A stretch of DNA of 31,226 bases from IMG/VR virus record IMGVR_UViG_2541047916_000004; one strand, given 5' to 3'. Shown here piece after piece: positions 12,915-23,314 of this stretch. Origin of the DNA: a virus. Lineage: Duplodnaviria; Heunggongvirae; Uroviricota; Caudoviricetes. The position numbers and the translations under genes are program-made. The notes beneath the pieces are model-generated. The model was not told the DNA's origin, made no database searches, and worked only from the letters and a program-made list of their open reading frames with translations. Positions within the stretch are counted from its first letter, which is position 1. Every line of letters starts with the position of its first letter.

Positions 12915-13280
12915 ATGACTGAACGCATAGAATTTGTTTTGCCTTACCCGCCAACGGTGAACACTTACTGGCGACGTCGTGGCAGCACATATTTTGTATC
13001 AAAAGTCGGTGAGCGTTATCGCCGTGATGTGGCGCTTATTGTTCGCCAGCAGCAACTGAAATTAAACCTGTCCGGAAGGCCGGCAATAGAAATTATTGCA
13101 GAGCCACCGGATAAGCGCCGTCGTGACCTGGACAATATCCTGAAGGCACCACTGGATGTACTGACGCATGCGGGGCTGCTCATAGACGACGAGCAGTTTG
13201 ATGAAATTAATATTGTGCGCGGTCAGCTTGTTCCTGGTGGGCGGTTGGGGATAAAAATCACAGAACTGGAGTACGCATGA
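12915..13280 (+). CDS. rusA: RusA Holliday-junction resolvase
   Basis: 121-aa ORF with the RusA-family pattern (YWRRRG... PPDKRRRDLDNILKAPLDVLTHAGLLIDDEQ...GGRLGIKITELE). Confidence 0.9.
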   Translation: MTERIEFVLPYPPTVNTYWRRRGSTYFVSKVGERYRRDVALIVRQQQLKLNLSGRPAIEIIAEPPDKRRRDLDNILKAPLDVLTHAGLLIDDEQFDEINIVRGQLVPGGRLGIKITELEYA

Positions 13281-13966
13281 ATAACCAGTATTTACAGTTT
13301 GTTCGTGAGCAACTCATGATTGCCACCGCCGATTTGAGTGGATCAACAAAAGGGCAGCTTGAGGCCTGGCAGGAGAATGCCATGTTTGATACAGGGCGTT
13401 ACAGGCGTAAAAAAATCCGGTACCGCGATGAAGTGACTGGAAAAATGATAACGCGGGATAATCCACCAATCCCGGGAAAGCAATCGCTGGCGAAGGGGGT
13501 GTCAATTCCTCTCGTCAGTCCGGTTGAGTTTTCGACATCATCGTGGCGGCGGGCTGTTCTGTCTCTTGAAGAACATCATAAAGCCTGGTTGTTGTGGTGT
13601 TACAGCGGGAGTATTTGTTGGGAATATCAGATCGCGATAACGCAGTGGGTGTGGAATGAATTTAAAACCCGGTACGGCACCAGAAAAATTGCAGGGAAAA
13701 CGCAGGAGCGCGTGAAGAAGTTGATCTGGCTGGCGGCACAGGATGTCAGAGGATGGATTACCGGGTGTGAGGTCTACCAGAGACAGGAGCTTGCCAGACT
13801 GTGTGGAGTTAAGCCTGATAACTGGAGCCATAATTATGCGAACTACTGGCGTGAGATGTGCGATATTTTTAAGAGTCTCGATAGAGAATCTGTGATTTGC
13901 ACCGTGAAAATAAGAGCGCAACAAAAAGCGACTTTTTCACGACGAGATATTGCAAAAGTCAATTAA
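13277..13966 (+). CDS. Q: Late-gene antiterminator Q-like protein
   Basis: 229-aa ORF coupled to rusA by ATGA overlap; conserved lambdoid position just upstream of a terminator and the late region; contains Cys/His-rich segment. Confidence 0.65.
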   Translation: MNNQYLQFVREQLMIATADLSGSTKGQLEAWQENAMFDTGRYRRKKIRYRDEVTGKMITRDNPPIPGKQSLAKGVSIPLVSPVEFSTSSWRRAVLSLEEHHKAWLLWCYSGSICWEYQIAITQWVWNEFKTRYGTRKIAGKTQERVKKLIWLAAQDVRGWITGCEVYQRQELARLCGVKPDNWSHNYANYWREMCDIFKSLDRESVICTVKIRAQQKATFSRRDIAKVN

Positions 13967-14033
13967 ATAGCGTACGCTTCGTATAAATCTGATATTTTGC
14001 CGATTTTGTACGCGATGGCAAAGTAAGAAAAAA

Positions 14034-14059
14034 AACTGCCGTCAGGCGGTTTTTTTTTA
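14034..14059 (+). terminator. Rho-independent terminator (tR'-like) just downstream of Q
   Basis: CTGCC-GTCA-GGCGG stem-loop followed by TTTTTTTTT. Confidence 0.55.
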
Positions 14060-14180
14060 TGCCCAAAATCGCGTCAGTACAGTAAACACGCTGGTGGTTG
14101 CGAATACGGGTCTTTCAGCTTGCTGGCTTTTTCGACAAGAGTTATTGGTATGTCACGTTAACCGGAAAAAGGAAAAAGAC

Positions 14181-14378
14181 ATGCTAAAACAGCAGGATAT
14201 GACAGAAACCGCCAGAGTGGTGTTTAATGAATTAAGCGTTACCGAACCGGCGACAGTCGGGGAGATAGCGCAGAATACTTACCTTTCACGCGAACGCTGC
14301 CAGTTAATACTGACCCAGCTGGTTATGGCGGGTCTGGCAGACTATCAGTTCGGTTGTTACAGACGCCTTCAGTCCTGA
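14181..14378 (+). CDS. Hypothetical small protein
   Basis: 66 aa from ATG 14181 (AAGGAAAAAG upstream); stop lies within a downstream hairpin/T-run; bracketed by two terminators. Confidence 0.4.
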   Translation: MLKQQDMTETARVVFNELSVTEPATVGEIAQNTYLSRERCQLILTQLVMAGLADYQFGCYRRLQS

Positions 14379-14392
14379 AGGCTTTTTTATTT
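14364..14392 (+). terminator. Rho-independent terminator
   Basis: GCCTTCAG-TC-CTGAAGGC perfect inverted repeat followed by TTTTTTATTT. Confidence 0.5.
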
Positions 14393-14528
14393 GTGGTAAA
14401 TGGGCGGCTGGTGGGTGTTAGGGGCACCCACCAGCCATCTGCTCATGCGTTGGGTTCACAAGCAAACCTCAGGCCCACTGCTTTGCGCAAAAGCAGAATG
14501 AGCCTATCAGAGACAGGCTTAATGATCC

Positions 14529-15578
14529 ATGCTTAATACTGTAAAAATATCCAGTTGTGAGTTAATCAACGCCGACTGCCTGGAATTTATCCGGTCGTTA
14601 CCCGAAAATTCTGTTGACCTGATAGTCACGGACCCGCCGTACTTTAAAGTGAAGCCTGAGGGCTGGGATAACCAGTGGAAGGGCGACGATGATTACCTGA
14701 AGTGGCTGGACCAGTGTCTGGCGCAGTTCTGGCGGGTGCTGAAACCTGTCGGAAGTCTTTACCTGTTCTGTGGTCATCGCCTGGCATCTGATATCGAAAT
14801 CATGATGCGTGAACGCTTCAGTGTGCTGAACCATATTATCTGGGCGAAGCCGTCCGGACGCTGGAACGGATGCAACAAGGAAAGCCTGCGGGCGTATTTC
14901 CCCGCCACAGAGCGCATTCTGTTCGCGGAACATTATCAGGGGCCGTATCGTCCGAAAGATGCCGGGTATGCGGCGAAGGGCAGTGCACTGAAACAGCATG
15001 TGATGGCCCCGCTGATTTCTTACTTTCGTGATGCGCGCGCTGCCCTGGGGATAACGGCAAAACAGATTGCAGATGCCACAGGAAAGAAAAACATGGTGTC
15101 GCACTGGTTCAGTGCCAGTCAGTGGCAGCTACCGAACGAAAGCGATTATCTGAAATTACAGTCGCTGTTTGCCCGGGTGGCAGAAGAGAAACATCAGCGC
15201 GGTGAACTGGAAAAGCCCCACCACCAGCTGGTGGATACGTATACGTCACTGAACCGGCAGTATGTGGAGCTGCAGAGTGAATATAAGCATCTGCGGCGGT
15301 ATTTTGGTGTGACGGCGCAGGTGCCGTACACGGATGTGTGGACACATAAACCGGTGCAGTTCTATCCCGGGAAACATCCGTGCGAAAAACCGGCAGAAAT
15401 GCTGCAGCAGATAATCAGCGCAAGCAGTCGTCCGGGTGACCTGGTTGCAGATTTTTTTATGGGCTCAGGTTCAACGGTAAAAGCGGCACTGGCGCTTGGG
15501 CGTCGTGCGATTGGCGTTGAACTGGAGACCGGACGTTTTGAGCAGACAGTCAGGGAAGTTCAGGATTTAATCGTTTGA
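14529..15578 (+). CDS. Orphan DNA methyltransferase (beta-class N6-adenine or N4-cytosine)
   Basis: 349-aa ORF; DPPY catalytic motif near the N-terminus (LIVTDPPYF) and FxGxG AdoMet motif near the C-terminus (DFFMGSGST); no adjacent restriction endonuclease ORF. Confidence 0.85.
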   Translation: MLNTVKISSCELINADCLEFIRSLPENSVDLIVTDPPYFKVKPEGWDNQWKGDDDYLKWLDQCLAQFWRVLKPVGSLYLFCGHRLASDIEIMMRERFSVLNHIIWAKPSGRWNGCNKESLRAYFPATERILFAEHYQGPYRPKDAGYAAKGSALKQHVMAPLISYFRDARAALGITAKQIADATGKKNMVSHWFSASQWQLPNESDYLKLQSLFARVAEEKHQRGELEKPHHQLVDTYTSLNRQYVELQSEYKHLRRYFGVTAQVPYTDVWTHKPVQFYPGKHPCEKPAEMLQQIISASSRPGDLVADFFMGSGSTVKAALALGRRAIGVELETGRFEQTVREVQDLIV

Positions 15579-15627
15579 AACGGATGAGATTGCAGAATTA
15601 ATTACGCACCATTATTATTCTGCTCCC

Positions 15628-15703
15628 GGCCCTTTAGCTCAGTGGTGAGAGCGAGCGACTCATAATCGCCAGGTCGCTGGTTCAAATCCAGCAAGGGCCA
15701 CCA
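15628..15703 (+). tRNA. tRNA-Ile2-like (anticodon CAU; ileX/ileZ-type)
   Basis: 76 nt cloverleaf: acceptor GGCCCTT/AAGGGCC, D-arm AGCTCAGTGGTGAGAGC, anticodon loop CTCATAA, T-loop TTCAAAT, ACCA tail; closely resembles E. coli ileX. Confidence 0.85.
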
Positions 15704-15710
15704 TCACATA

Positions 15711-15787
15711 CCGCCATTAGCTCATCAGGAAAGAGCGCCAGCTTTCGAAGCTGGTTGCGCGGAGTTCGGGTCCCCGAAGGCGGTCCA
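15711..15787 (+). tRNA. tRNA-Arg(UCG)-like, possibly degenerate
   Basis: D-arm GCTC...GAGC and anticodon stem-loop CCAGC-TTTCGAA-GCTGG are clean; acceptor stem has one mismatch and the T-arm is non-canonical (loop TTCGGGT, mismatched stem). Confidence 0.45.
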
Positions 15788-15800
15788 TTATCTGTATCCT

Positions 15801-15877
15801 GCGTTGTTAGCTCAGCCGGACAGAGCAATTGCCTTCTAAGCAATCGGTCACTGGTTCGAATCCAGTACAACGCGCCA
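15801..15877 (+). tRNA. tRNA-Arg (anticodon UCU)
   Basis: 77 nt: acceptor GCGTTGT/ACAACGC, D-arm GCTC...GAGC, anticodon stem-loop ATTGC-CTTCTAA-GCAAT, T-arm ACTGG-TTCGAAT-CCAGT, GCCA tail. Confidence 0.85.
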
Positions 15878-15892
15878 CACTTATTTTCCCTG

Positions 15893-15918
15893 GCTCGCTT
15901 TTGCGGGCTTTTTTTAAA
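15893..15918 (+). terminator. Possible terminator after the tRNA cluster
   Basis: GGCTCGC-TTTT-GCGGGCT imperfect hairpin (G-U wobbles) followed by TTTTTTT. Confidence 0.35.
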
Positions 15919-15920
15919 TG

Positions 15921-16142
15921 TCTCACAATTCAGGCGGTTGACTGTTGTCTGGTTTGCGGGGAGTTTGTTAAAAGAAACTGGCATGGTGAATCCCCCTGTG
16001 CGGAGGGGCAATCAGCGAGTAGGTATATGGGATAATCGCGGATTCAGGTGCTGGTACTGAATTCACCGGGAGGCACCCGGCACCATGCAATGGCACATAG
16101 CGCCACTCTCCAGCCCCTCTCCGGAGGGGCTTTTCTGTGCCG
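15921..16142 (+). repeat. Copy A of a tandem paralogous hairpin-rich element (candidate sRNA unit)
   Basis: Shares with copy B the blocks CTCACAATTCAG..GTTGAC, GCATGGTGAATCCCCCTG(T/A)GCGGAGGGGC, GGTATA..ATAATC, TGAA(T/C)TCACCGGGAGGCACCCGGCACCATG and AGCCCCTCTCCGGAGGGGCTTT (terminator-like hairpin plus T-run); sequence between blocks differs. Confidence 0.45.
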
Positions 16143-16324
16143 GATACATCACAGTTTCTGGAACCTTAGGTACTACAGTATCAGTCAGGGTGCTATATTT
16201 TCAGATGTGATGAAAGCCTGTCAGCAGGCAGGGCGTATCGGAAATGACCCAGTAGAGAAAACGTTGACTCAGATACCGGTGCTGAGTTACCGGGAAACCG
16301 GCATCACATGACCGCTATCCTTCC

Positions 16325-16352
16325 AGGCCCATCCGCTCCGGTGGGCCTTTTT
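16325..16352 (+). terminator. Rho-independent terminator-like hairpin between the two repeat copies
   Basis: AGGCCCA-TCCGCTCCGG-TGGGCCT followed by TTTTT. Confidence 0.45.
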
Positions 16353-16390
16353 ACTGCAGAAAACAGGTTCCCCGTTAAATGCTATGTTGC

Positions 16391-16625
16391 TCACAATTCA
16401 GTAAGTTGACAGTTGCCTGTCAGACTGGGCATTTGTTAAAAAAATTTCGCATGGTGAATCCCCCTGAGCGGAGGGGCGACTGGTGACGGTATAATCTCTG
16501 ATTATCAAAACGAGAATGACGCGGGTTTAGTGGCACCGGGTTGAACTCACCGGGAGGCACCCGGCACCATGTGCATGATGATACAGATACGCGGCTTTAG
16601 CCCCTCTCCGGAGGGGCTTTCTTAT
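16391..16625 (+). repeat. Copy B of the tandem paralogous element (candidate sRNA unit)
   Basis: Same conserved blocks as copy A in the same order, including a perfect TATAAT (GGTATAATC) and the terminal GCCCCTC-TCCG-GAGGGGC hairpin followed by TTTCTT. Confidence 0.45.
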
Positions 16626-16629
16626 GGAC

Positions 16630-16658
16630 AAAAAAAGCCCGCGCTGGGAGACGCGGGC
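16630..16658 (-). terminator. Rho-independent terminator readable on the minus strand
   Basis: Minus strand reads GCCCGCG-TCTCCCA-GCGCGGGC followed by TTTTTTT (plus-strand A-run 16630-16636); lies back-to-back with the plus-strand terminator of copy B. Confidence 0.4.
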
Positions 16659-16851
16659 GGCAAGGAATAAACAATAAAACGTGAAGTAATATTTCAGCTG
16701 GCGAATAATACCCCATAGTAATCACTCTGCGCAACTGCGCGGTCTTTTTCGAATTGCGGGCTGTAGTCTCCCTTCTGCCATTGTCCTGTAACTTCCGGAC
16801 TTCAGCCTGCTCCTTATCTGACTCACAACATTATCCCGCCCGGGAGGATTC

Positions 16852-18705
16852 ATGGCATTTAAACACTATGACGTGGTCAGGGCGGCATCGCCGTCAGACC
16901 TTGCGAAACGACTGACACAAAAACTGAAGGAGGGCTGGCAGCCGTTTGGTAGTCCGGTGGCCATAACCCCTTATACCCTGATGCAGGCGATTGCAGCAGA
17001 AGGTGATGTGGTCGTCAGTGGTGCAACTGAGCCGGAGTGGTACTACGTCATCGTACTGGCCGGGCAATCCAATGCCATGGCTTACGGTGAAGGGCTTCCG
17101 CTTCCGGATTCATACGATGCGCCCCATCCGCGCATTAAGCAACTGGCCCGTCGTAACACAGTGACTCCCGGTGGTGAAGTATGCGTATTTAACGACATCA
17201 TTCCTGCTGACCATTGTCTGCATGATGTTCAGGATATGAGTACGATTAACCATCCCCGGGCTGACCTGAGCAAAGGGCAGTACGGCTGTGTCGGACAGGG
17301 CTTACATATTGCCAAAAAACTGCTTCCGTATATCCCTAATAATGCGGGGATCCTGCTGGTACCATGCTGTCGTGGTGGTTCGGCATTCACCCAGGGCACG
17401 GAGGGGACATTCAGCGAGTCCACGGGAGCCAGTCAGGATTCGGCTCGCTGGGGAGTGGGTAAGCCGTTATATCAGGATCTGCTTTTCCGCACGAAGGCAG
17501 CATTGCAGAAAAACCCGAAAAACGTTTTGCTGGCGATATGCTGGATGCAGGGGGAATTCGATATGACGAATGCCAGTTACGCCCAGCAGCCAGCAGCATT
17601 TCTTGCAATGGTACAGCAGTTCCGTGCTGACCTTGCCGGGCTGGCGGCGCAGTGTCACGGTGGAAGTCCGGCATCAGTCCCCTGGATTTGTGGCGACACG
17701 ACATACGCGTGGAAACAAGAACACGGTACGCAATATGAAGTGGTATATGGTGCATATAAAGGTAAAGAATCCCAGCAGATTTATTTTGTTCCCTTTATGA
17801 CCGATGGTAGCGGAGTTAATACACCGACAAACAACCCGTCAGAAGATCCTGATATTGCCGGGTCTGGTTATTACGGTTCGGCATCCCGAACGAACAAAAA
17901 CTGGGTATCATCAAATCGCCCGACGCATTTCAGCTCATGGGCGCGTCGTGGCATTATTCCCGATCGTATGGCAACTGCTATTCTGAACGTAGCCGGTCGC
18001 ACCTTAGCCTTCATTAGTGGTAAGGCACCGGAAATCAAACCCTCGCCCGGCGGCGACACGCCATCGGGGCCGTCTGAAGATGCATCCATACGCACAATCT
18101 CCCTGTTGCCGACAGCCGGAGACGCTGCTGCGCAGGGCTGGAGCATTAAGAATGGCGGAATTCAGTTGTCAGATGGTGTATTTAAGATCACCAAGCAGAG
18201 CAATAAAGCCTGGTCCCTGACGCGCCCGGTGGATGACGCAGTCTCCCTGCTGACACGGGGTGGCAGACTGAGCTGTAAGTTTCGACTGTCAGGCGCACTG
18301 ACCAACAACCAGTTCGGTCTGGGAATTTATCTGTATACCGATGTAGCGTTACCTGACGTCGTGGCGATGACCGGGACTGGTAACCCGTTCCTGATGTCGT
18401 TCTTCACCCAGACCACAGACGGCAAACTGAATCTGATGCATCACAAGAAAGCAGGAAACACAAAGTTGGGCGAGTTCGGGAATTACAGTAACGACTGGCA
18501 GACGCTGGAGCTGGTGTTCACCGCCGGCAGTGCCACGGTTACTCCGAAACTGAATGGAGTGGCTGGCCCGGCATTCCAGGTCATAAAAGACAGTCTGACA
18601 CTGGGGCTGAATGCGCTGACGCTGACGGATATTACCAAAAATGCAGCGTATGGCGTTGAGATAGAAAGTCTGGTGCTGGAGATAAATGCACCGGCATCAT
18701 CATAA
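16852..18705 (+). CDS. nanS: NanS-p-like prophage sialate O-acetylesterase (N-terminal DUF1737-like region plus SGNH-type esterase)
   Basis: 617-aa ORF with GGGAGG RBS; N-terminus MAFKHYDVVRAASPSDLAKRL... and esterase-like core (VLAGQSNAMAYGEG); occupies the position just downstream of stx in Shiga-toxin phages. Confidence 0.8.
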   Translation: MAFKHYDVVRAASPSDLAKRLTQKLKEGWQPFGSPVAITPYTLMQAIAAEGDVVVSGATEPEWYYVIVLAGQSNAMAYGEGLPLPDSYDAPHPRIKQLARRNTVTPGGEVCVFNDIIPADHCLHDVQDMSTINHPRADLSKGQYGCVGQGLHIAKKLLPYIPNNAGILLVPCCRGGSAFTQGTEGTFSESTGASQDSARWGVGKPLYQDLLFRTKAALQKNPKNVLLAICWMQGEFDMTNASYAQQPAAFLAMVQQFRADLAGLAAQCHGGSPASVPWICGDTTYAWKQEHGTQYEVVYGAYKGKESQQIYFVPFMTDGSGVNTPTNNPSEDPDIAGSGYYGSASRTNKNWVSSNRPTHFSSWARRGIIPDRMATAILNVAGRTLAFISGKAPEIKPSPGGDTPSGPSEDASIRTISLLPTAGDAAAQGWSIKNGGIQLSDGVFKITKQSNKAWSLTRPVDDAVSLLTRGGRLSCKFRLSGALTNNQFGLGIYLYTDVALPDVVAMTGTGNPFLMSFFTQTTDGKLNLMHHKKAGNTKLGEFGNYSNDWQTLELVFTAGSATVTPKLNGVAGPAFQVIKDSLTLGLNALTLTDITKNAAYGVEIESLVLEINAPASS

Positions 18706-18790
18706 AAAGTGAGCCAGCCAAATGGAAGGTATCGTTAAACTCACCGGTAGTGTCAGTGGGTCGTCTGAGACGCCTGCATGAGTTATCAGA

Positions 18791-18820
18791 GCCATCAGTA
18801 CTTAACTGGTGGCTTTTTTT
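18791..18820 (+). terminator. Rho-independent terminator after nanS-p
   Basis: GCCATCAG-TACTTAA-CTGGTGGC (one G-U wobble) followed by TTTTTTT. Confidence 0.5.
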
Positions 18821-18855
18821 ATTGTTGTCAGCTTCCGGATAACGGGAGACGGGGT

Positions 18856-19071
18856 ATGTACCAGATGGAAAAAATCACAACAGGTGTGTCATACACCACG
18901 TCAGCGGTGGGAACGGGCTACTGGTTCCTGCAGTTGCTGGACAGGGTTTCCCCGTCTCAGTGGGCGGCAATAGGCGTGCTGGGGAGTCTGCTGTTTGGGC
19001 TGCTGACATATCTGACTAACCTGTATTTCAAAATCAGAGAGGACCGTCGTAAGGCGGCACGGGGAGAGTAA
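18856..19071 (+). CDS. S: Pinholin, phage 21 S21-like (dual-start holin/antiholin)
   Basis: 71-aa [74 protein letters not shown], closely resembling the S21 pinholin; Met1 and Met4 give the dual-start motif; upstream part of the longer ORF from 18778 is discarded. Confidence 0.85.
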
Positions 19072-19075
19072 TTCA

Positions 19076-19420
19076 ATGACTCAAAACTATGAACTGATTG
19101 TGAAAGGGATCCGCAATTTTGAGAATAAAGTTACGGTAACTTTAGCGTTACGGGACAAAAAACGCTTTGACGGTGAAATTTTTGACCTGGACATCTCGCT
19201 GGACCGTGTTGAAGGTGCCGCGCTGGAGTTTTATGAGGCAGCAGCCAGAAGGAGCATCAGACAGGTCTTCCTGGATGTTGCTGCCGGGTTATGTGAAGGG
19301 GATGAGCAGTCGCCGGAAAAGCGCCCCGTAATTTTAGAGGCGCAGGATGTGTTGATAACCTACAGAGGAAAACTACCGGGAATAATTACGGGTTCTCTGA
19401 AGAGTCCGCCGAAATGGTAA
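19076..19420 (+). CDS. Hypothetical protein inserted between holin and endolysin
   Basis: 114-aa ORF starting 4 nt after the holin stop, with GGGAGAG RBS; no recognisable motif. Confidence 0.55.
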   Translation: MTQNYELIVKGIRNFENKVTVTLALRDKKRFDGEIFDLDISLDRVEGAALEFYEAAARRSIRQVFLDVAAGLCEGDEQSPEKRPVILEAQDVLITYRGKLPGIITGSLKSPPKW

Positions 19421-19658
19421 TTTTACCAGCATATTTTTCATCCAGTAATACAGCAAGCCGCCTGAAAGAGTCTTGTTGTTCCTGAGACCATTTGGGATTG
19501 CATGATTCAAACTGGATTGATGCCAGCGTTGATTGCATCTGTTCCCTTGGAATTGAGAATGCCAGATATGAGAAGGCGACGGTAAGGGTATTCACGTCTT
19601 CCCGAAGCCTGGAAATGCTGTCGAGCAACTCCTGTAGAGAAATGGTGTTATTGTCCAT
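19386..19658 (-). CDS. Hypothetical protein, antisense to the lysis operon
   Basis: 90-aa ORF with GAGGA RBS 7 nt upstream of ATG on the minus strand; 3' end overlaps the convergent 114-aa gene by 35 bp; relatively AT-rich. Confidence 0.5.
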   Translation of the reverse strand: MDNNTISLQELLDSISRLREDVNTLTVAFSYLAFSIPREQMQSTLASIQFESCNPKWSQEQQDSFRRLAVLLDEKYAGKITISADSSENP

Positions 19659-19763
19659 AAATAATCCTCATGATTGTATTGACCTGTTAGCAGCCTGAGG
19701 CAACAGGCTGGAACTGATAAACATATCCAGGGCTCAGAAACCGATAAATCCTGATAAATATCC

Positions 19764-20297
19764 ATGAACGCAAAAATCAGATACGGCCTGTCGGCTGCCG
19801 TTCTGGCGCTGATTGCCGCTGGTGCGCCTGCGCCTGACATTCTCGACCAGTTTCTGGATGAAAAGGAAGGTAACCACACCACGGCATACCGTGATGGCGC
19901 GGGTATCTGGACCATCTGCCGCGGTGCCATCCTGGTGGATGGCAAACCTGTCGTTCCGGGCATGAAGTTGTCGAAGGAAAAATGCGACCGGGTTAACGCC
20001 ATTGAGCGTGATAAGGCGCTGGCATGGGTGGAGAAAAACATCAAAGTGCCATTGAGCGAACCCCAGAAAGCGGGGATCGCGTCATTCTGTCCGTACAACA
20101 TTGGTCCCGGTAAGTGTTTCCCGTCGACGTTTTATAAACGAATTAATGCAGGTGATCGCAGGGGAGCGTGTGAGGCGATTCGCTGGTGGATTAAGGACGG
20201 TGGCAGAGACTGCCGTATTCGTTCAAACAACTGCTACGGTCAGGTATCCCGTCGTGACCAGGAGAGCGCGCTGGCGTGCTGGGGTATCGACAGATAA
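19764..20297 (+). CDS. R: SAR endolysin (T4-lysozyme-like, GH24)
   Basis: 177-aa ORF; N-terminal signal-anchor-release segment LSAAVLALIAAGAPAP; catalytic region EGNHTTAYRDGAGIWTICRG; functional partner of an S21-type pinholin. Confidence 0.9.
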   Translation: MNAKIRYGLSAAVLALIAAGAPAPDILDQFLDEKEGNHTTAYRDGAGIWTICRGAILVDGKPVVPGMKLSKEKCDRVNAIERDKALAWVEKNIKVPLSEPQKAGIASFCPYNIGPGKCFPSTFYKRINAGDRRGACEAIRWWIKDGGRDCRIRSNNCYGQVSRRDQESALACWGIDR

Positions 20298-20388
20298 GCA
20301 GAATATTTTGCTGAAAAATGCGGTTTGCTTACACGGACGGATAACACGAAATCCTGCGAACTGACAAAAACTAAGTGAATAAAAGTAA

Positions 20389-20427
20389 AAACCCCGTTTG
20401 TTGGCAGCAAGCGGGGTTTTGTTTTTA
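20389..20427 (+). terminator. Strong rho-independent terminator downstream of the endolysin
   Basis: CCCCGTTTG-TTGGCAG-CAAGCGGGG (9-bp stem with one G-U) followed by TTTTGTTTTT. Confidence 0.6.
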
Positions 20428-20491
20428 TGGCAGTAAGCTATGGGAGGCTGCCTTGATTGATTTTAGCAAACTGATTAGGGAGTTGCGACTC

Positions 20492-20587
20492 ATGATTAGT
20501 CAATTACCAAACTGGAAATTTTTGCTGGTCTGGAGCATCCCTTTTTTATGGGTAGTATCCCAGTTAATTGTGGCAATTAAGGGGTAG
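20492..20587 (+). CDS. Small hydrophobic peptide 1 (31 aa)
   Basis: ATG preceded by AGGGAG; MISQLPNWKFLLVWSIPFLWVVSQLIVAIKG, a single predicted TM segment; below the 60-aa ORF-track cutoff as a stand-alone gene. Confidence 0.35.
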   Translation: MISQLPNWKFLLVWSIPFLWVVSQLIVAIKG

Positions 20588-20589
20588 CT

Positions 20590-20721
20590 ATGTCAGACAA
20601 ACTCATAACGCCGGCAAAGGTCCTGTGTGTGATTGTCGGTATTTCATTTTCACTAATGCTGGTTGCTCTTTTTCTGTCCCTCGCCTGGGTGATGTTGTCT
20701 TCGTCGGGGCTGCTGGGGTGA
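20590..20721 (+). CDS. Small hydrophobic peptide 2 (43 aa)
   Basis: ATG preceded by AAGGGG with 5-nt spacer; MSDKLITPAKVLCVIVGISFSLMLVALFLSLAWVMLSSSGLLG; starts 2 nt after the peptide 1 stop. Confidence 0.4.
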   Translation: MSDKLITPAKVLCVIVGISFSLMLVALFLSLAWVMLSSSGLLG

Positions 20722-20840
20722 CAGTGACTGATGACATCAGCAGAGCGCTGGCTTTTGCTATTAAGTGGGTGGCTGTTGGTATTGCTGTGTCTCCGATGCT
20801 GTATGGGCTGGCAAAACTGGTCATTGCGCTGAAATCGTGA
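20718..20840 (+). CDS. Small hydrophobic peptide 3 (about 40 aa, GTG start)
   Basis: GTG overlapping the peptide 2 stop (GTGA); ...SRALAFAIKWVAVGIAVSPMLYGLAKLVIALKS; start codon choice uncertain. Confidence 0.3.
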   Translation: MTVTDDISRALAFAIKWVAVGIAVSPMLYGLAKLVIALKS

Positions 20841-20851
20841 ACTTTAAAAAG

Positions 20852-20938
20852 ATGAGTGCTGAACTTATTCGGGCAATGGCATTTGCCATTCGTATTGTGG
20901 CCATTGCTGTTCTGGTCTGGGCAATCCGTTGGTGGTGA
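20852..20938 (+). CDS. Small hydrophobic peptide 4 (28 aa)
   Basis: [28 protein letters not shown]; shares the motif A(L/M)AFAI(K/R) with peptide 3; stop is 1 nt before the Rz start; weak RBS. Confidence 0.3.
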
Positions 20939-20939
20939 T

Positions 20940-21434
20940 ATGAACCGTGTTCTGTGTGTGGTGATTATTGTCATGCTGGTAGCCTGTGGTGTGCTTAGTC
21001 TGGGGCTGAATCATTACCGCGATAACGCCATCACCTACAAAGCGCAGCGCGATAAAAAAGTCAGTGAGCTGAAACTGGCGAATGCCACTATTACTGACAT
21101 GCAGCAGCGCCAGCGAGATGTCGCTGCGCTTGATGCCAGATACACGAAGGAATTAGCCGATGCGAGAGCTGAAAATGAAACTCTGCGCGCTGATGTTGCC
21201 GCTGGTCGTAAGCGCCTGCGGGTCAACGCCACCTGCCCCGGTACCGTGCGTGAAGCCACCGGCACCTCCAGCGTGGATAATGCAACCGGCCCCCGACTGG
21301 CAGACACCGCTGAACGGGATTATTTCATCCTCAGAGAACGGTTGATGACAATGCAGAAGCAGCTGGAAGGGGCGCAGGAATATATCCGCACTCAGTGCAC
21401 TAAGCTGGCTTTTTATTATCCGGAGGATACATGA
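20940..21434 (+). CDS. Rz: Rz i-spanin
   Basis: 164 aa from ATG 20940: N-terminal TM ([18 protein letters not shown]) then a coiled-coil periplasmic domain; contains an embedded Rz1 ORF in another frame. Confidence 0.85.
21175..21345 (+). CDS. Rz1: Rz1 o-spanin lipoprotein (embedded in Rz)
   Basis: [15 protein letters not shown] lipobox signal followed by a proline-rich mature region ([16 protein letters not shown]); fully nested in a different frame within Rz. Confidence 0.8.
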
Positions 21435-21655
21435 AGAAATTACGGGTAACCGTAGAACCTTTTCAGGGAACAATTCCGTTCCGTATTTTGCAGCGTGGTC
21501 GTGTTCTTGTTGAAGGTTCGTTCAGTGGTAAATGTACGCAATTACACTCCCGGACCTTTCAGGTGAATGCCACGAATGAAGAGCTAACCGTGGAGTGTAC
21601 GATGAATGCCGCTAAATGCCGCATGGTATCCGCTGCATTACAACCAGTGTGTTGA
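21431..21655 (+). CDS. Hypothetical protein
   Basis: 74-aa ORF whose ATG overlaps the Rz stop (ATGA). Confidence 0.45.
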
Positions 21656-21853
21656 GCGACCTTATTATCCATGCGCGGTATTGTCGCCGTATTCCTGCAT
21701 TAACAGAGACCGCAGCCCGACAGGGAGACTCCTCTGCGCGAGTGTGCGGGGATAATCAAAAACGATACACACCGGGGTTTACCGCGTTAACGGAGCGCGG
21801 CGTTGTCCCCTCATAGTCGCCTGTCCGGTGCGATGGTGGAAGAAACCGAACGT

Positions 21854-22054
21854 TCATTTCTCGTTATTTGTCATGCTGGCCGGGCGCAGATGCGTTGCAT
21901 CTGTTGCCAGCCTTCTCCTGCAGGCTTCAATAACCCACGCTGAAAAGTTACCGGACCCTTTATGCTCAAGGGCGATGTTGATCTGTTCAATTATGTGATT
22001 GGGGAAACGGATATTGCGGGTTGTGGTTCTGCGGGTCCGGTTTTTCGATGACAT
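21854..22054 (-). CDS. Ribbon-helix-helix-like small DNA-binding protein
   Basis: 66 aa from the internal ATG at 22054 with AAGGA RBS 9 nt upstream; NIRFPNHIIEQINIALEHKGSGNFSAWVIEACRRRL resembles an RHH fold; the longer upstream extension is discarded. Confidence 0.5.
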   Translation of the reverse strand: MSSKNRTRRTTTRNIRFPNHIIEQINIALEHKGSGNFSAWVIEACRRRLATDATHLRPASMTNNEK

Positions 22055-22095
22055 ATTTATTTCCTTTACTGATTGCCATATGACGGGGATTTTAC

Positions 22096-22461
22096 ATGGC
22101 TGAGCTTCGTACACTCCAGAGCAGAATCAAAACACTGAATACCCGACGGGTGAATATTCTGAAGGGGGAGCAGCGTCGTGTCAGTGGCAGTGCACGTGTT
22201 TCCCTCAAGCGTCATATCTGGCTGAGGGACGCCGGGCAGTGCTGTATCTGTGGTCGTGTGGTTGACCTCTGTGACAGTGAACTCGATCACCGAATTGCAC
22301 TTCAGTTCGGTGGTGGTAATGAGGAGACGAATCTTTGGACGCTCTGTGCCGAATGCCATCGACAAAAGTCTGCTCGTGAAGCGGCGAGTGGTATGCCGGA
22401 CCCGACGCTGCCGGAGGTGTCCGGAGGTAGTGGCAGAGAGGACGACATCATCGGACTGTAA
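22096..22461 (+). CDS. HNH endonuclease (terminase-associated)
   Basis: 121-aa ORF with CCICG...DHRIALQFGG...N...CAECH motif; located just upstream of the packaging site and terminase genes. Confidence 0.85.
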   Translation: MAELRTLQSRIKTLNTRRVNILKGEQRRVSGSARVSLKRHIWLRDAGQCCICGRVVDLCDSELDHRIALQFGGGNEETNLWTLCAECHRQKSAREAASGMPDPTLPEVSGGSGREDDIIGL

Positions 22462-22552
22462 CCCAACCCGGGGGGGTATCATCCGGCGTAAAAAACGATC
22501 GCTTTGGACACCGCGCCCCCTCTCACGCAGAGAAAAAATTCCCGTTTCAGGG

Positions 22553-22679
22553 CAGTTAACATGTTAACTGGCTGCCCGGGCATTTTTGCGGTTTTTATCT
22601 TTATTATTCAGTTTGTTGTGCGGAAAAAATGTTAACAGGCTTTTTCAGCAAATGTTAACCAGGCAGCAGTTAACATTTG
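22553..22679. repeat. GTTAAC-containing palindrome/repeat cluster, candidate packaging recognition site
   Basis: Perfect 18-bp palindrome CAGTTAACATGTTAACTG (22553-22570) plus AATGTTAACAGG, AATGTTAACCAGG and CAGTTAACATTTG within 130 bp, immediately upstream of terS. Confidence 0.4.
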
Positions 22680-22750
22680 CGGCATGAGACGCCGGGAAAA
22701 ATGGGCTGAACCATACCCGGCTGAGTGCGTTCTGGACCCGGGAGGAGGCT

Positions 22751-23314
22751 GTGCTGACAACGCAAAAACGAAAATTTGCGCTGGCGCTCATGTCCGGGAA
22801 AAACAAAACAGCGTCAGCCATTGCCGCCGGTTATTCGGCGAAGACCGCCAGGGTTAAAGGCTCGCAGCTGGCAAAAGATCCGGAGGTGCTTGCGTTTATA
22901 GCCCGTAAACAATGCGAGACGGTGGAGGTGGATGAGGTTCCTGTTTACCGGCAGAAAAAATCAGAGCAGGAGGATAAACCCCGTCGCCGTGAGGCGGCTG
23001 CAATACCACAGCCGGACGAAAACAATCCGGAGATGCCACCGTCCGCGGTGATGTCTCCTGGTATTGAATATATGGAGGATGGTCTTCCCGATCCGGTGAA
23101 AGCCATGGGGCGGATCCTGGTGGAAAACCTCTGCATTGATCCGAAACTGGCACTGGATGCGGCCTGGCGTCTGGCGCAGTTCACGCACCATAAAAAAGGG
23201 GATACCGGGAAAAAATCGGCAAAAGGTGATGCCGCGAAAAAAGCGGCTAACCGTTTTGCGGTGCCACCGCCACCCCGACTGGTGGTGAATAACGATAATG
23301 AGGGCAACGGATGA
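22751..23314 (+). CDS. terS: Terminase small subunit
   Basis: 187-aa ORF, GTG start after GGAGGAGG; N-terminal HTH-like region (KTASAIAAGYSAKTARVKGSQL); coupled by ATGA to terL. Confidence 0.8.
   Translation: MLTTQKRKFALALMSGKNKTASAIAAGYSAKTARVKGSQLAKDPEVLAFIARKQCETVEVDEVPVYRQKKSEQEDKPRRREAAAIPQPDENNPEMPPSAVMSPGIEYMEDGLPDPVKAMGRILVENLCIDPKLALDAAWRLAQFTHHKKGDTGKKSAKGDAAKKAANRFAVPPPPRLVVNNDNEGNG

Follow-up and report, generated by a model that had tools for sequence, protein, structure and literature searches.

Small single-helix membrane peptides encoded between the endolysin and spanin genes of lambdoid prophages, candidate modulators of lysis

Lambdoid lysis cassettes are usually drawn as holin, endolysin, and spanin genes. 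The 31,226-nt viral sequence IMGVR_UViG_2541047916_000004 (here the window, to which all coordinates refer unless another locus is named) raises the question of what else such a cassette may hold, as four consecutive short open reading frames (ORFs) lie between the lysozyme gene R and the spanin gene Rz in the late operon of a lambdoid Escherichia coli prophage. A preliminary description of this region, made from the sequence alone, suggested lysis-timing modulators, holin-like or antiholin-like factors, type I toxin-like peptides, or the fragments of a broken membrane protein. We propose that these are four independent genes of three families coding for single-pass inner-membrane peptides of 28 to 44 aa, that together with Rz/Rz1 they form a coupled distal sub-operon of the Q-dependent lysis transcript, and that they modulate the membrane steps of lysis without being essential to it; taken as a whole, we judge this reading about as apt to be right as wrong.

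The four ORFs are read directly from the sequence between a strong terminator and Rz, as first described, and each has a single hydrophobic stretch resembling one transmembrane (TM) helix (maximum Kyte-Doolittle 19-residue means of 1.9 to 2.9; Table 1). The GTGA overlap of ORF2 with ORF3 and the one base separating the ORF4 stop codon from the Rz start are both present, and the coupled mini-operon that had been suggested is recognizable as a tightly packed, apparently translationally coupled unit leading into Rz/Rz1. The strength of Shine-Dalgarno sequences (SDs) was scored as pairing energy to the anti-SD, where about 5% of random 20-mers from the window reach -8; the good SDs noted at two of the ORFs hold up on this scale, with -8.4 both for the ORF1 ATG and for ORF2, and the values are -5 to -6 for ORF3, none (+0.3) for ORF4, and -6.2 for Rz, the SD of which (GGTGGTGA) is built from the final codons of ORF4. 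Of the lengths originally given (31, 43, about 40, and 28 aa), those of ORF2, ORF3, and ORF4 stand, and that of ORF1 has to be revised. ORF1 most likely starts at TTG 20453 and codes for 44 aa, not 31 aa from ATG 20492, because the N-terminus IDFSKLIRELRxM is conserved in the 45-position profile of phrog_6632, six diverged homologs have GTG or TTG at exactly the position of TTG 20453 with a strong SD ahead, and the ratio of nonsynonymous to synonymous changes (pN/pS) in the N-terminal extension is 0.45 in frame versus 2.2 to 2.4 in the shifted frames. For ORF3, an alternative start at GTG 20724 would give 38 aa. Two longer calls were rejected and judged to be gene-caller artefacts, a 70-aa ORF (GTG 20375) that runs through the terminator and a 90-aa ORF (TTG 20568) that overlaps ORF2 out of frame; such long calls are mirrored in some phage records and in PHROG 3246. 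A 123-aa minus-strand ORF at 20603-20974 was set aside as a shadow frame, the sense frames being lower in pN/pS; antisense frames are open over all of these hydrophobic-coding segments, and the extent of this one shifts with each gene architecture.

Table 1. Features of the peptide cluster and of the lysis genes around it
Feature	Coordinates	Strand	Remarks
Intrinsic terminator (A-tract, stem, U-tract)	20388..20430	+	15-pair stem 20388-20420 plus T-run
SD of ORF1, GGGAGG	20442..20447	+	Duplex dG -10.2 kcal/mol; 4-5 nt 5' of TTG 20453
ORF1, most likely 44 aa, phrog_6632	20453..20587	+	N-terminal amphipathic segment IDFSKLIRELRLM, then one predicted TM helix
ORF2, 43 aa, phrog_4906	ATG 20590..20721	+	Single predicted TM
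ORF3, 40 aa, phrog_1115	GTG 20718..20840	+	Overlaps ORF2 stop as GTGA
ORF4, 28 aa, phrog_4493, ORF3 paralog	ATG 20852..20938	+	Last codons CGT TGG TGG TGA; one base, then Rz ATG at 20940
Rz i-spanin	20940..21434	+	PF03245, E=4e-51; phrog_13
Rz1 o-spanin, inside Rz, +1 frame	21160..21345	+	Lipobox VVSAC, proline-rich; from the ORF list
Q antiterminator gene	13277..13966	+	PF06323 Phage_antiter_Q, E=1.4e-83
Class II P21-type holin	18856..19071	+	PF04971, E=9e-33
Signal-anchor-release (SAR)-type lysozyme R	19764..20297	+	PF00959; 94% identical to 933W R

To ask whether such short frames are under selection, we drew on IMG/VR, GenBank records of phages, E. coli genomes, and assemblies for more than 190 related loci, and compared diverged copies codon by codon. 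All four ORFs are genuine genes, because they match PHROG families, have low in-frame pN/pS, change with codon periodicity, and keep their family lengths. The matches to PHROGs 6632, 4906, 1115, and 4493, all labelled 'unknown function', are significant over most of the profile length (E-values of 1.3e-12 for ORF1, with a longer query spanning the 44-aa form; 4.5e-21 for ORF2; 6.4e-25 for ORF3; and 3.8e-6 for ORF4, or 5.5e-16 for its 37-aa form). Values of pN/pS are at their lowest in the annotated frame, out of all six for ORF2 (0.42, versus 0.57 in the wobble-sharing antisense frame and 0.9 to 1.4 in the others), ORF3 (0.28, versus 0.37 and 0.9 to 3.3), and ORF4 (0.23, versus 0.40 and 0.9 to 1.7), and out of the three sense frames computed for ORF1 (0.35, versus 0.81 and 2.88). 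Minimum changes by codon position are 18/3/36 for ORF3 (p=6e-7), 11/3/22 for ORF4 (p=5e-4), and 11/5/16 and 21/13/25 for two ORF2 subtypes, with 61/24/99 when the four family sets are pooled (p=1e-10). ORF2 relatives are almost all 43 to 44 aa long, and the ORF1 family keeps 44 to 45 aa in E. coli, Salmonella, Citrobacter, Enterobacter, Klebsiella, and Providencia.

Homologs of ORF2 include EDL933_1392, Sakai XECs191, and, in phage 933W, an ORF without annotation that lies between ant and Rz. XECs191, of strain Sakai O157:H7, is the same protein as EDL933_1392, which adjoins the 933W Rz gene (PMC4765031 supplement); it met RIBOseq thresholds in LB medium, with a translatome value of 12.6 reads per kilobase per million (RPKM), a coverage of 0.55, and a ribosome coverage value (RCV) of 0.43, and the same study predicted one TM helix and an inner-membrane location for it (Hücker et al. 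2017, PMC5597208 supplement). The families are already catalogued, as hypothetical proteins, in PHROGs, as RefSeq WP_001280935.1, WP_042004856.1, and WP_032140280.1, and as EDL933_1392, and annotation is patchy: at the near-identical locus of E. coli NCTC86, the PGAP annotation lists ORF2, ORF3, and ORF4 as hypothetical and omits ORF1, phage records annotate ORF1 to ORF3 and omit ORF4, and the 933W RefSeq record omits all. Literature searches with the module, the accessions, and the PHROG identifiers returned no account of the module, its terminator-leader, or a function.

The cluster is widespread. Of 5426 complete E. coli genomes, 587 contain 80% or more of the region and 2068 (about 40%) contain parts of it, an occurrence far above chance; plaque-forming or induced phages carry the module as well, among them PhiR5_1, vB_EcoS-569R3, 933W, P27, and SPN3UB. 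The families are independent genes that have been shuffled, because they stand alone or in a different order in more than 190 loci (Table 2). Their position is nearly constant, after the endolysin gene and directly before a spanin or small lipoprotein gene, and is kept across five endolysin types (SAR lysozyme, GH108, M15, GH19, and a second, divergent PF00959 lysozyme) and alongside four holin Pfam families (PF04971, PF16080, and PF16931 paired with PF05449). Spacing is tight: neighbouring small genes are -4 to +17 nt apart, and Rz or the lipoprotein gene Lpp60 follows at -4 to +10 nt; the distance from endolysin to first small ORF is 155 to 234 nt where no gene intervenes. Among GTDB species-representative genomes, the ORF3/4 profile had no confirmed match and the ORF2 profile had one, to a 328-bp 'Xanthomonas pisi' contig (NZ_JPLE01000251.1; locus L107) that holds the end of an ant gene and an ORF2 homolog and most likely reflects contamination of the assembly with E. 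coli phage DNA. Because these scans gave no confirmed match elsewhere, the ORF2 and ORF3/4 families are restricted to E. coli/Shigella/Salmonella-type prophages; ORF1 extends to other Enterobacterales.

Table 2. Gene orders in which the small ORFs (O1 to O4) occur
Architecture	Occurrence
SAR-lysozyme-O1-O2-O3-O4-Rz (window type)	71 loci
SAR-lysozyme-O3-O2-Rz	37 loci
GH108-O3-O2-Lpp60	37 loci, plus variants with an extra 65- or 93-aa gene
161-aa lysozyme-GWGW peptide-O3-Rz	Salmonella, 5 loci
SAR-lysozyme-Ant-O2-Rz	933W, P27
SAR-lysozyme-Ant-O1-O2(-O3-O4)-Rz	PhiR5_1, Stx1a phages
SAR-lysozyme-O4-Rz	GER2
SAR-lysozyme-O3-O4-Rz	L149
SAR-lysozyme-O1-O2-Rz	L085
M15 peptidase-P93-O4 or O3-Lpp60	phiSTEC1575 and L148 (2)
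SAR-lysozyme-O1-like-Rz	SPN3UB; E. coli type strain ATCC 11775 (R-terminator-O1-Rz)
GH19-O1-like-i/o-spanin pair	Enterobacter

Three further small genes accompany these architectures. Lpp60, a lipoprotein of 51 to 65 aa, replaces Rz/Rz1 after the small ORFs in GH108 and M15 cassettes (L087, 2789-2986; L092, 2764-2961; L103, 1886-2068). It has the lipobox LVGC and three cysteines in a mature part of about 30 aa, matches phrog_7528 (unknown function), and opens with the MNR/ATGAACCG junction of Rz; no Rz-like gene lies within 2.5 kb of it, and it may be a non-canonical outer-membrane-disruption gene. In Salmonella phages, a family of 34- to 38-aa peptides with two short hydrophobic segments flanking GWGW (weak phrog_14810 matches) overlaps the 3' end of the endolysin gene, upstream of the terminator (L097, 2208-2312; L106 [SPN3UB], 1490-1606). 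Finally, some leaders hold an eight-codon mini-ORF (MGREVLSL*/MCREVYSL*) between the SD and the GTG of the ORF3/ORF4 homolog, which it overlaps as GTGA (L102 [GER2], ~1690-1735; L097, ~2470-2500), and which looks like an extra coupling step.

The strong terminator reported after the SAR endolysin gene is there, its hairpin having a folding energy of about -21 kcal/mol, and the comparison across loci suggests to what it belongs. Behind four types of endolysin (SAR lysozymes, GH108, the Salmonella lysozyme, and M15/P93), the first small ORF has the same hairpin (AAAACCCCG...CGGGGTTTT) and the leader CTGTTTCTGRCCTTGRRTAAGGCAAGGGAGAAC-ATG ahead of it, and terminator and SD leader therefore belong to the peptide module and not to the endolysin. 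Alignment of 12 hairpin variants has nine invariant base pairs, one covarying pair (GC/UG/AU/UA), and a variable inner stem. In 933W-type phages, divergence begins exactly at the start of the hairpin, where an ant module with its own hairpin stands instead. The anatomy of the module is thus a terminator hairpin, a leader of about 25 nt with a strong SD, one to four TM-peptide genes, and an outer-membrane-disruption gene.

Comparison of the loci also suggests how the array of the window arose. The shared A(L/M)AFAI(K/R) motif, from which a duplication had been suspected, indeed reflects true paralogy: ORF3 and ORF4 both match phrog_4493, 3246, and 1115, their full-length forms align at E=3e-8, and intermediates exist, while ORF1 and ORF2 are separate families, three families in all. 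The canonical ORF3 (MKNGLELKAPVTDDISRAVAFAIKWVAVGIAVSPMLYGLAKLVIALKS; family lengths 48/60 aa) is probably 60 aa long, read from an ATG further upstream that immediately follows the leader SD (M-x-KYKRILLRLT...), and the canonical ORF4 form is 37 aa; the short N-terminus of ORF4 (MSAELIRAM) is a natural variant that is found behind full-length ORF3 too. Longer relatives of ORF3/4 are gene calls extended upstream. Loci L085 (terminator-O1-O2-Rz) and L149 (terminator-O3-O4-Rz) display both parent types, and the reading frame of Rz begins in L085 and L146 at a GTG (GGGGTGA) that overlaps the stop codon of ORF2. This same GTG (window 20718-20726) opens ORF3 in the window, a start signal reused after recombination, and ORF3 joins the canonical sequence there at ...VTDDISRA, with the first ~22 codons gone. 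The array is therefore a recombinant in which [terminator-ORF1-ORF2-GTG] is fused to [ORF3 without its ~22 first codons-ORF4-Rz], and the ORF3 of the window is a shortened, re-started copy, because it shares the GTG with L085/L146 and lacks the canonical N-terminus. Within the window-type lineage, two ORF3 variants are synonymous and one, a singleton, is non-synonymous, which is consistent with continued constraint at low power.

How is a unit that lies behind a terminator transcribed? Only 32 nt separate the stem end at 20420 from the ORF1 start at 20453 (about 22 nt past the T-run), and a promoter scan found no promoter-like site on the plus strand between terminator and ORF1; the peptides and Rz/Rz1 must therefore be transcribed by readthrough. 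Q-modified polymerase passes terminators in lambdoid late operons, and because a Q gene is encoded upstream in the window, Q antitermination of the late transcript would explain the readthrough. If only Q-modified RNA polymerase crosses the terminator, peptides and spanins would be made late and not in the lysogen, and it is plausible that the distal unit is silent in lysogens. The anatomy suggests that ribosomes would load at the strong leader SD and be passed on by stop-start coupling to ORF3, ORF4, and Rz, since these have weak or no SDs of their own. By the positive-inside rule, the peptides would insert N-in/C-out in the inner membrane, with 2 to 14 residues outside. They are not themselves spanins, given that these predicted periplasmic tails are so short, that there is no lipobox, and that Rz and Rz1 are separate genes.

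We reason that the peptides may modulate the membrane steps of lysis in a non-essential way, because the downstream position is the same whichever holin or endolysin is present, and because phages that lack them lyse their hosts all the same. The spanin or terminal step would be a likelier target than holin triggering, since it is the position relative to the downstream partner that stays constant as holins and endolysins change. From position, a spanin-linked or general lysis-timing role is a tentative assignment, one we hold at somewhat less than an even chance. Several observations weigh against it, or against the larger proposal. Homologs of ORF1 also lie within baseplate clusters, in Salmonella phage SEN34 (L105, 1762-1899) and in a Klebsiella grimontii prophage (L194, 2501-2638), and a lysis context is therefore not obligatory for the ORF1 family. 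The K-12 prophage Qin, checked for the known small proteins ynfQ, ynfR, and ynfS, lacks the cluster and has R directly followed by Rz, with rrrQ overlapping rzpQ; lambda and phage 21 have the same arrangement, which means that lysis as such can proceed without the peptides. Part of the constant linkage to the spanin start may be owed to recombination at the common ...GGTGGTGAnATGAACCG junction and not to function. The ORF3 of the window, with a weak SD and without the conserved N-terminus, could be a tolerated remnant. ORF2 is only weakly constrained, and the least so of the four (21/13/25 for one subtype, p=0.15), and 8 of 175 ORF2 copies have a C-terminal frameshift. The RIBOseq signal of XECs191 is weak and comes from uninduced cultures. 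Lastly, Pfam, NCBIfam, PADLOC, and PDB sequence searches gave no match for any of the four peptides. Separately, we note that the ORF1-family genes in baseplate clusters carry the same SD leader, GGCAAGGGAGAACAT-GTG in SEN34 and a looser form in K. grimontii.

Some of these points would be accommodated if the peptides were 'morons', expressed late or in the lysogen, with a task outside lysis (for instance superinfection exclusion, or a block to DNA injection at the inner membrane), and merely occupied a recombination-prone gap between endolysin and spanin genes. The same gap carries unrelated cargo in 933W and PhiR5_1 (ant genes), the families are shuffled as morons are, and both the baseplate homologs of ORF1 and the RIBOseq signal of the Sakai homolog in uninduced cultures fit such a role. 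Nonetheless, with no promoter of their own and a terminator immediately upstream, expression in the lysogen is unlikely; moreover, there was no match to a PADLOC defence model at E<=1, and the tight coupling to spanin genes is kept across all five endolysin types. We consider this account unlikely, though worth keeping in view.

Alternatively, it could be the act of translation that matters, with the small ORFs delivering ribosomes to Rz/Rz1 and setting spanin dosage, the peptides being largely irrelevant. Strong SDs stand at the front alone (-10.2 and -8.4, versus the weak or missing ones of ORF3, ORF4, and Rz), the stop-start distances (-4 to +17 nt) suit such a relay, and the ribosome-binding site of Rz lies within the last codons of the upstream ORF, where an 'RWW-stop' ending recurs in two unrelated families. 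However, purifying selection acts on the amino acids, including the soluble N-terminal motifs IDFSKLIRELR and MKNGLELKAPVTDDISRA, and ribosome delivery alone would not preserve three peptide families and their lengths. As the whole explanation, this seems quite doubtful to us. Returning to lysis-modulating peptides, a bolder version of that proposal makes them a new class of lysis factor for the last step, either as spanin partners or regulators that gate the fusion of inner and outer membranes, or, with Lpp60, as an unrecognised outer-membrane-disruption system, the terminator-leader being a device that silences the unit without Q; this is speculative, and we would call it a long shot.

A more specific proposal is that the peptides are antiholins or holin-like partners of the P21-type pinholin and set lysis time through TM-TM contacts. 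One-TM holin-like timing proteins exist in mycobacteriophages, the membrane protein LysA of P2 carries the record note 'affects timing of lysis', and here, too, small TM peptides lie within a lysis cassette, ORF3 having a small-residue pattern (AVGIAVS) of the kind used in helix packing. Against this, the same families occur alongside four unrelated holin Pfam families, and the genes are distal to the endolysin gene and do not adjoin the holin gene. None of the four peptides has a Pfam or NCBIfam holin match, the holin of the cassette being the PF04971 gene, and the C-terminal flanks (KG, SLAWVMLSSSGLLG, ALKS, and AIRWW, with 0 to 1 basic residues) do not form a charged cytoplasmic C-terminal domain as in holins. 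The holin-like interpretation put forward in the preliminary description thus finds no support, with a P21-type holin already present and the peptides on the wrong side of the endolysin, and the antiholin variant is improbable.

Two other suggestions fare worse. Type I toxin-like peptides under antisense RNA control, for which small size and hydrophobicity speak, are very improbable: there is one promoter-like match on the minus strand (20596-20567), but promoter-like matches in the region number 3 versus 4.2 expected by chance, an Rfam search of 18000-23000 gave no match at E<=1, the antisense ORF is a shadow frame, and four tandem operon-internal genes beginning 32 nt past a terminator stem, with no room for a promoter of their own, do not have a type I architecture. 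That the ORFs are remnants of a frameshifted multi-TM protein can be dismissed as almost certainly wrong, even though their concatenated length of about 142 aa is near the 141 aa of P2 LysA in the same position and the window ORF3 is N-terminally truncated, because no relative has an intact spanning ORF, each family stands alone or in other orders elsewhere (>190 loci), each frame is under its own purifying selection, the concatenated peptides match LysA at a BLASTP E-value of only 6.2, and the 19 relatives that the ORF3/4 profile found among 1.84 billion representative proteins are all <=87 aa.

The surroundings of the cluster are those of a late operon, in the order Q, DNA methylase, three tRNA genes (tRNA-Met/Arg/Arg, 15628-15877), SASA-type esterase, holin, DUF1327 protein, R, small ORFs, and Rz/Rz1, with an HNH endonuclease ORF further 3' of Rz. 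Segment 20298-20945 has 100% identity with E. coli NCTC86, where PGAP names the holin a 'class II holin family protein' and places terminase genes just past the HNH ORF; the window as a whole is a mosaic that differs from NCTC86, the match being limited to 17798-23444 at ~99%. The 933W record annotates a homologous embedded Rz1, and the 933W R protein is entered as the phage 933W SAR endolysin in a published plasmid table (PMC9239132). The order Q-methylase-tRNAs-SASA esterase-holin at 13277-18705 is the late-region layout of Shiga toxin (Stx) phages; no stx genes were annotated or noticed in this interval, at which no search aimed at stx was directed. Between the DUF1327 gene and R, a 90-aa minus-strand ORF (19386-19658) overlaps the 3' end of the DUF1327 gene, in opposite orientation within the lysis cassette; it matches phrog_2411 over its full length (E=1e-58), and PGAP calls it hypothetical. 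Downstream, a 74-aa plus-strand ORF (21431-21655) overlaps the Rz stop as ATGA behind a strong SD, GGAGG (dG -9.5), and matches part of phrog_2571 (unknown function), and the coupled unit thereby reaches past Rz.

The locus adds a fourth, variable component before the spanin genes, shuffled one-helix peptides behind their own terminator-leader. Stx phages such as 933W, which release Shiga toxin upon lysis, carry parts of the module, and if the peptides do adjust the timing of lysis or the action of spanins, they would influence burst size, the release of toxin, and the fitness of the prophage. Should they have no role in lysis, they would still be a well-supported set of real small membrane proteins, some of them missed by annotation. 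The genes are short and genetically tractable targets, and 933W carries ORF2 alone.

Among known systems, LysA of P2 is a non-essential membrane protein (the P2 record reads 'nonessential; affects timing of lysis') whose gene follows that of endolysin K and immediately precedes the spanin genes for the Rz-like LysB/LysC. It is nevertheless one 141-aa, seemingly multi-TM protein, whereas here there are one to four one-helix peptides of 28 to 60 aa, and the two share no sequence similarity. The releasin gp25 (DUF2730) of Mu is likewise a membrane-tethered accessory lysis protein, encoded a few genes 3' of a SAR endolysin gene (PMC9239132), but it has 99 aa in an N-out/C-in orientation with a 73-aa cytoplasmic domain, in contrast to the 28- to 44-aa peptides of the window, which have no PF10805 DUF2730 match and the families of which also accompany four other endolysin types. 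Holins and antiholins, such as P21 S68/S71 and the one-TM holin-like proteins of mycobacteriophages, are also small membrane proteins of lysis cassettes, and set timing there; the peptides described here differ in lacking a holin family match and a charged tail, in their endolysin-distal position, and in co-occurring with four holin Pfam families. Type I toxins (Hok, Ldr, and TisB) are alike in size and hydrophobicity, but the peptides here are operon-internal and tandem, without antisense RNA or a promoter of their own. EDL933_1392/XECs191 and the 933W ORF are true homologs of ORF2, with ~75% nucleotide identity, the same length class, and a position directly 5' of Rz, although there ORF2 stands alone behind an ant gene, with ORF1, ORF3, and ORF4 absent. 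In position, the peptides come closest to P2 LysA and, less closely, to the Mu releasin; in size, they come closest to the one-TM holin-like timing proteins and the type I toxins.

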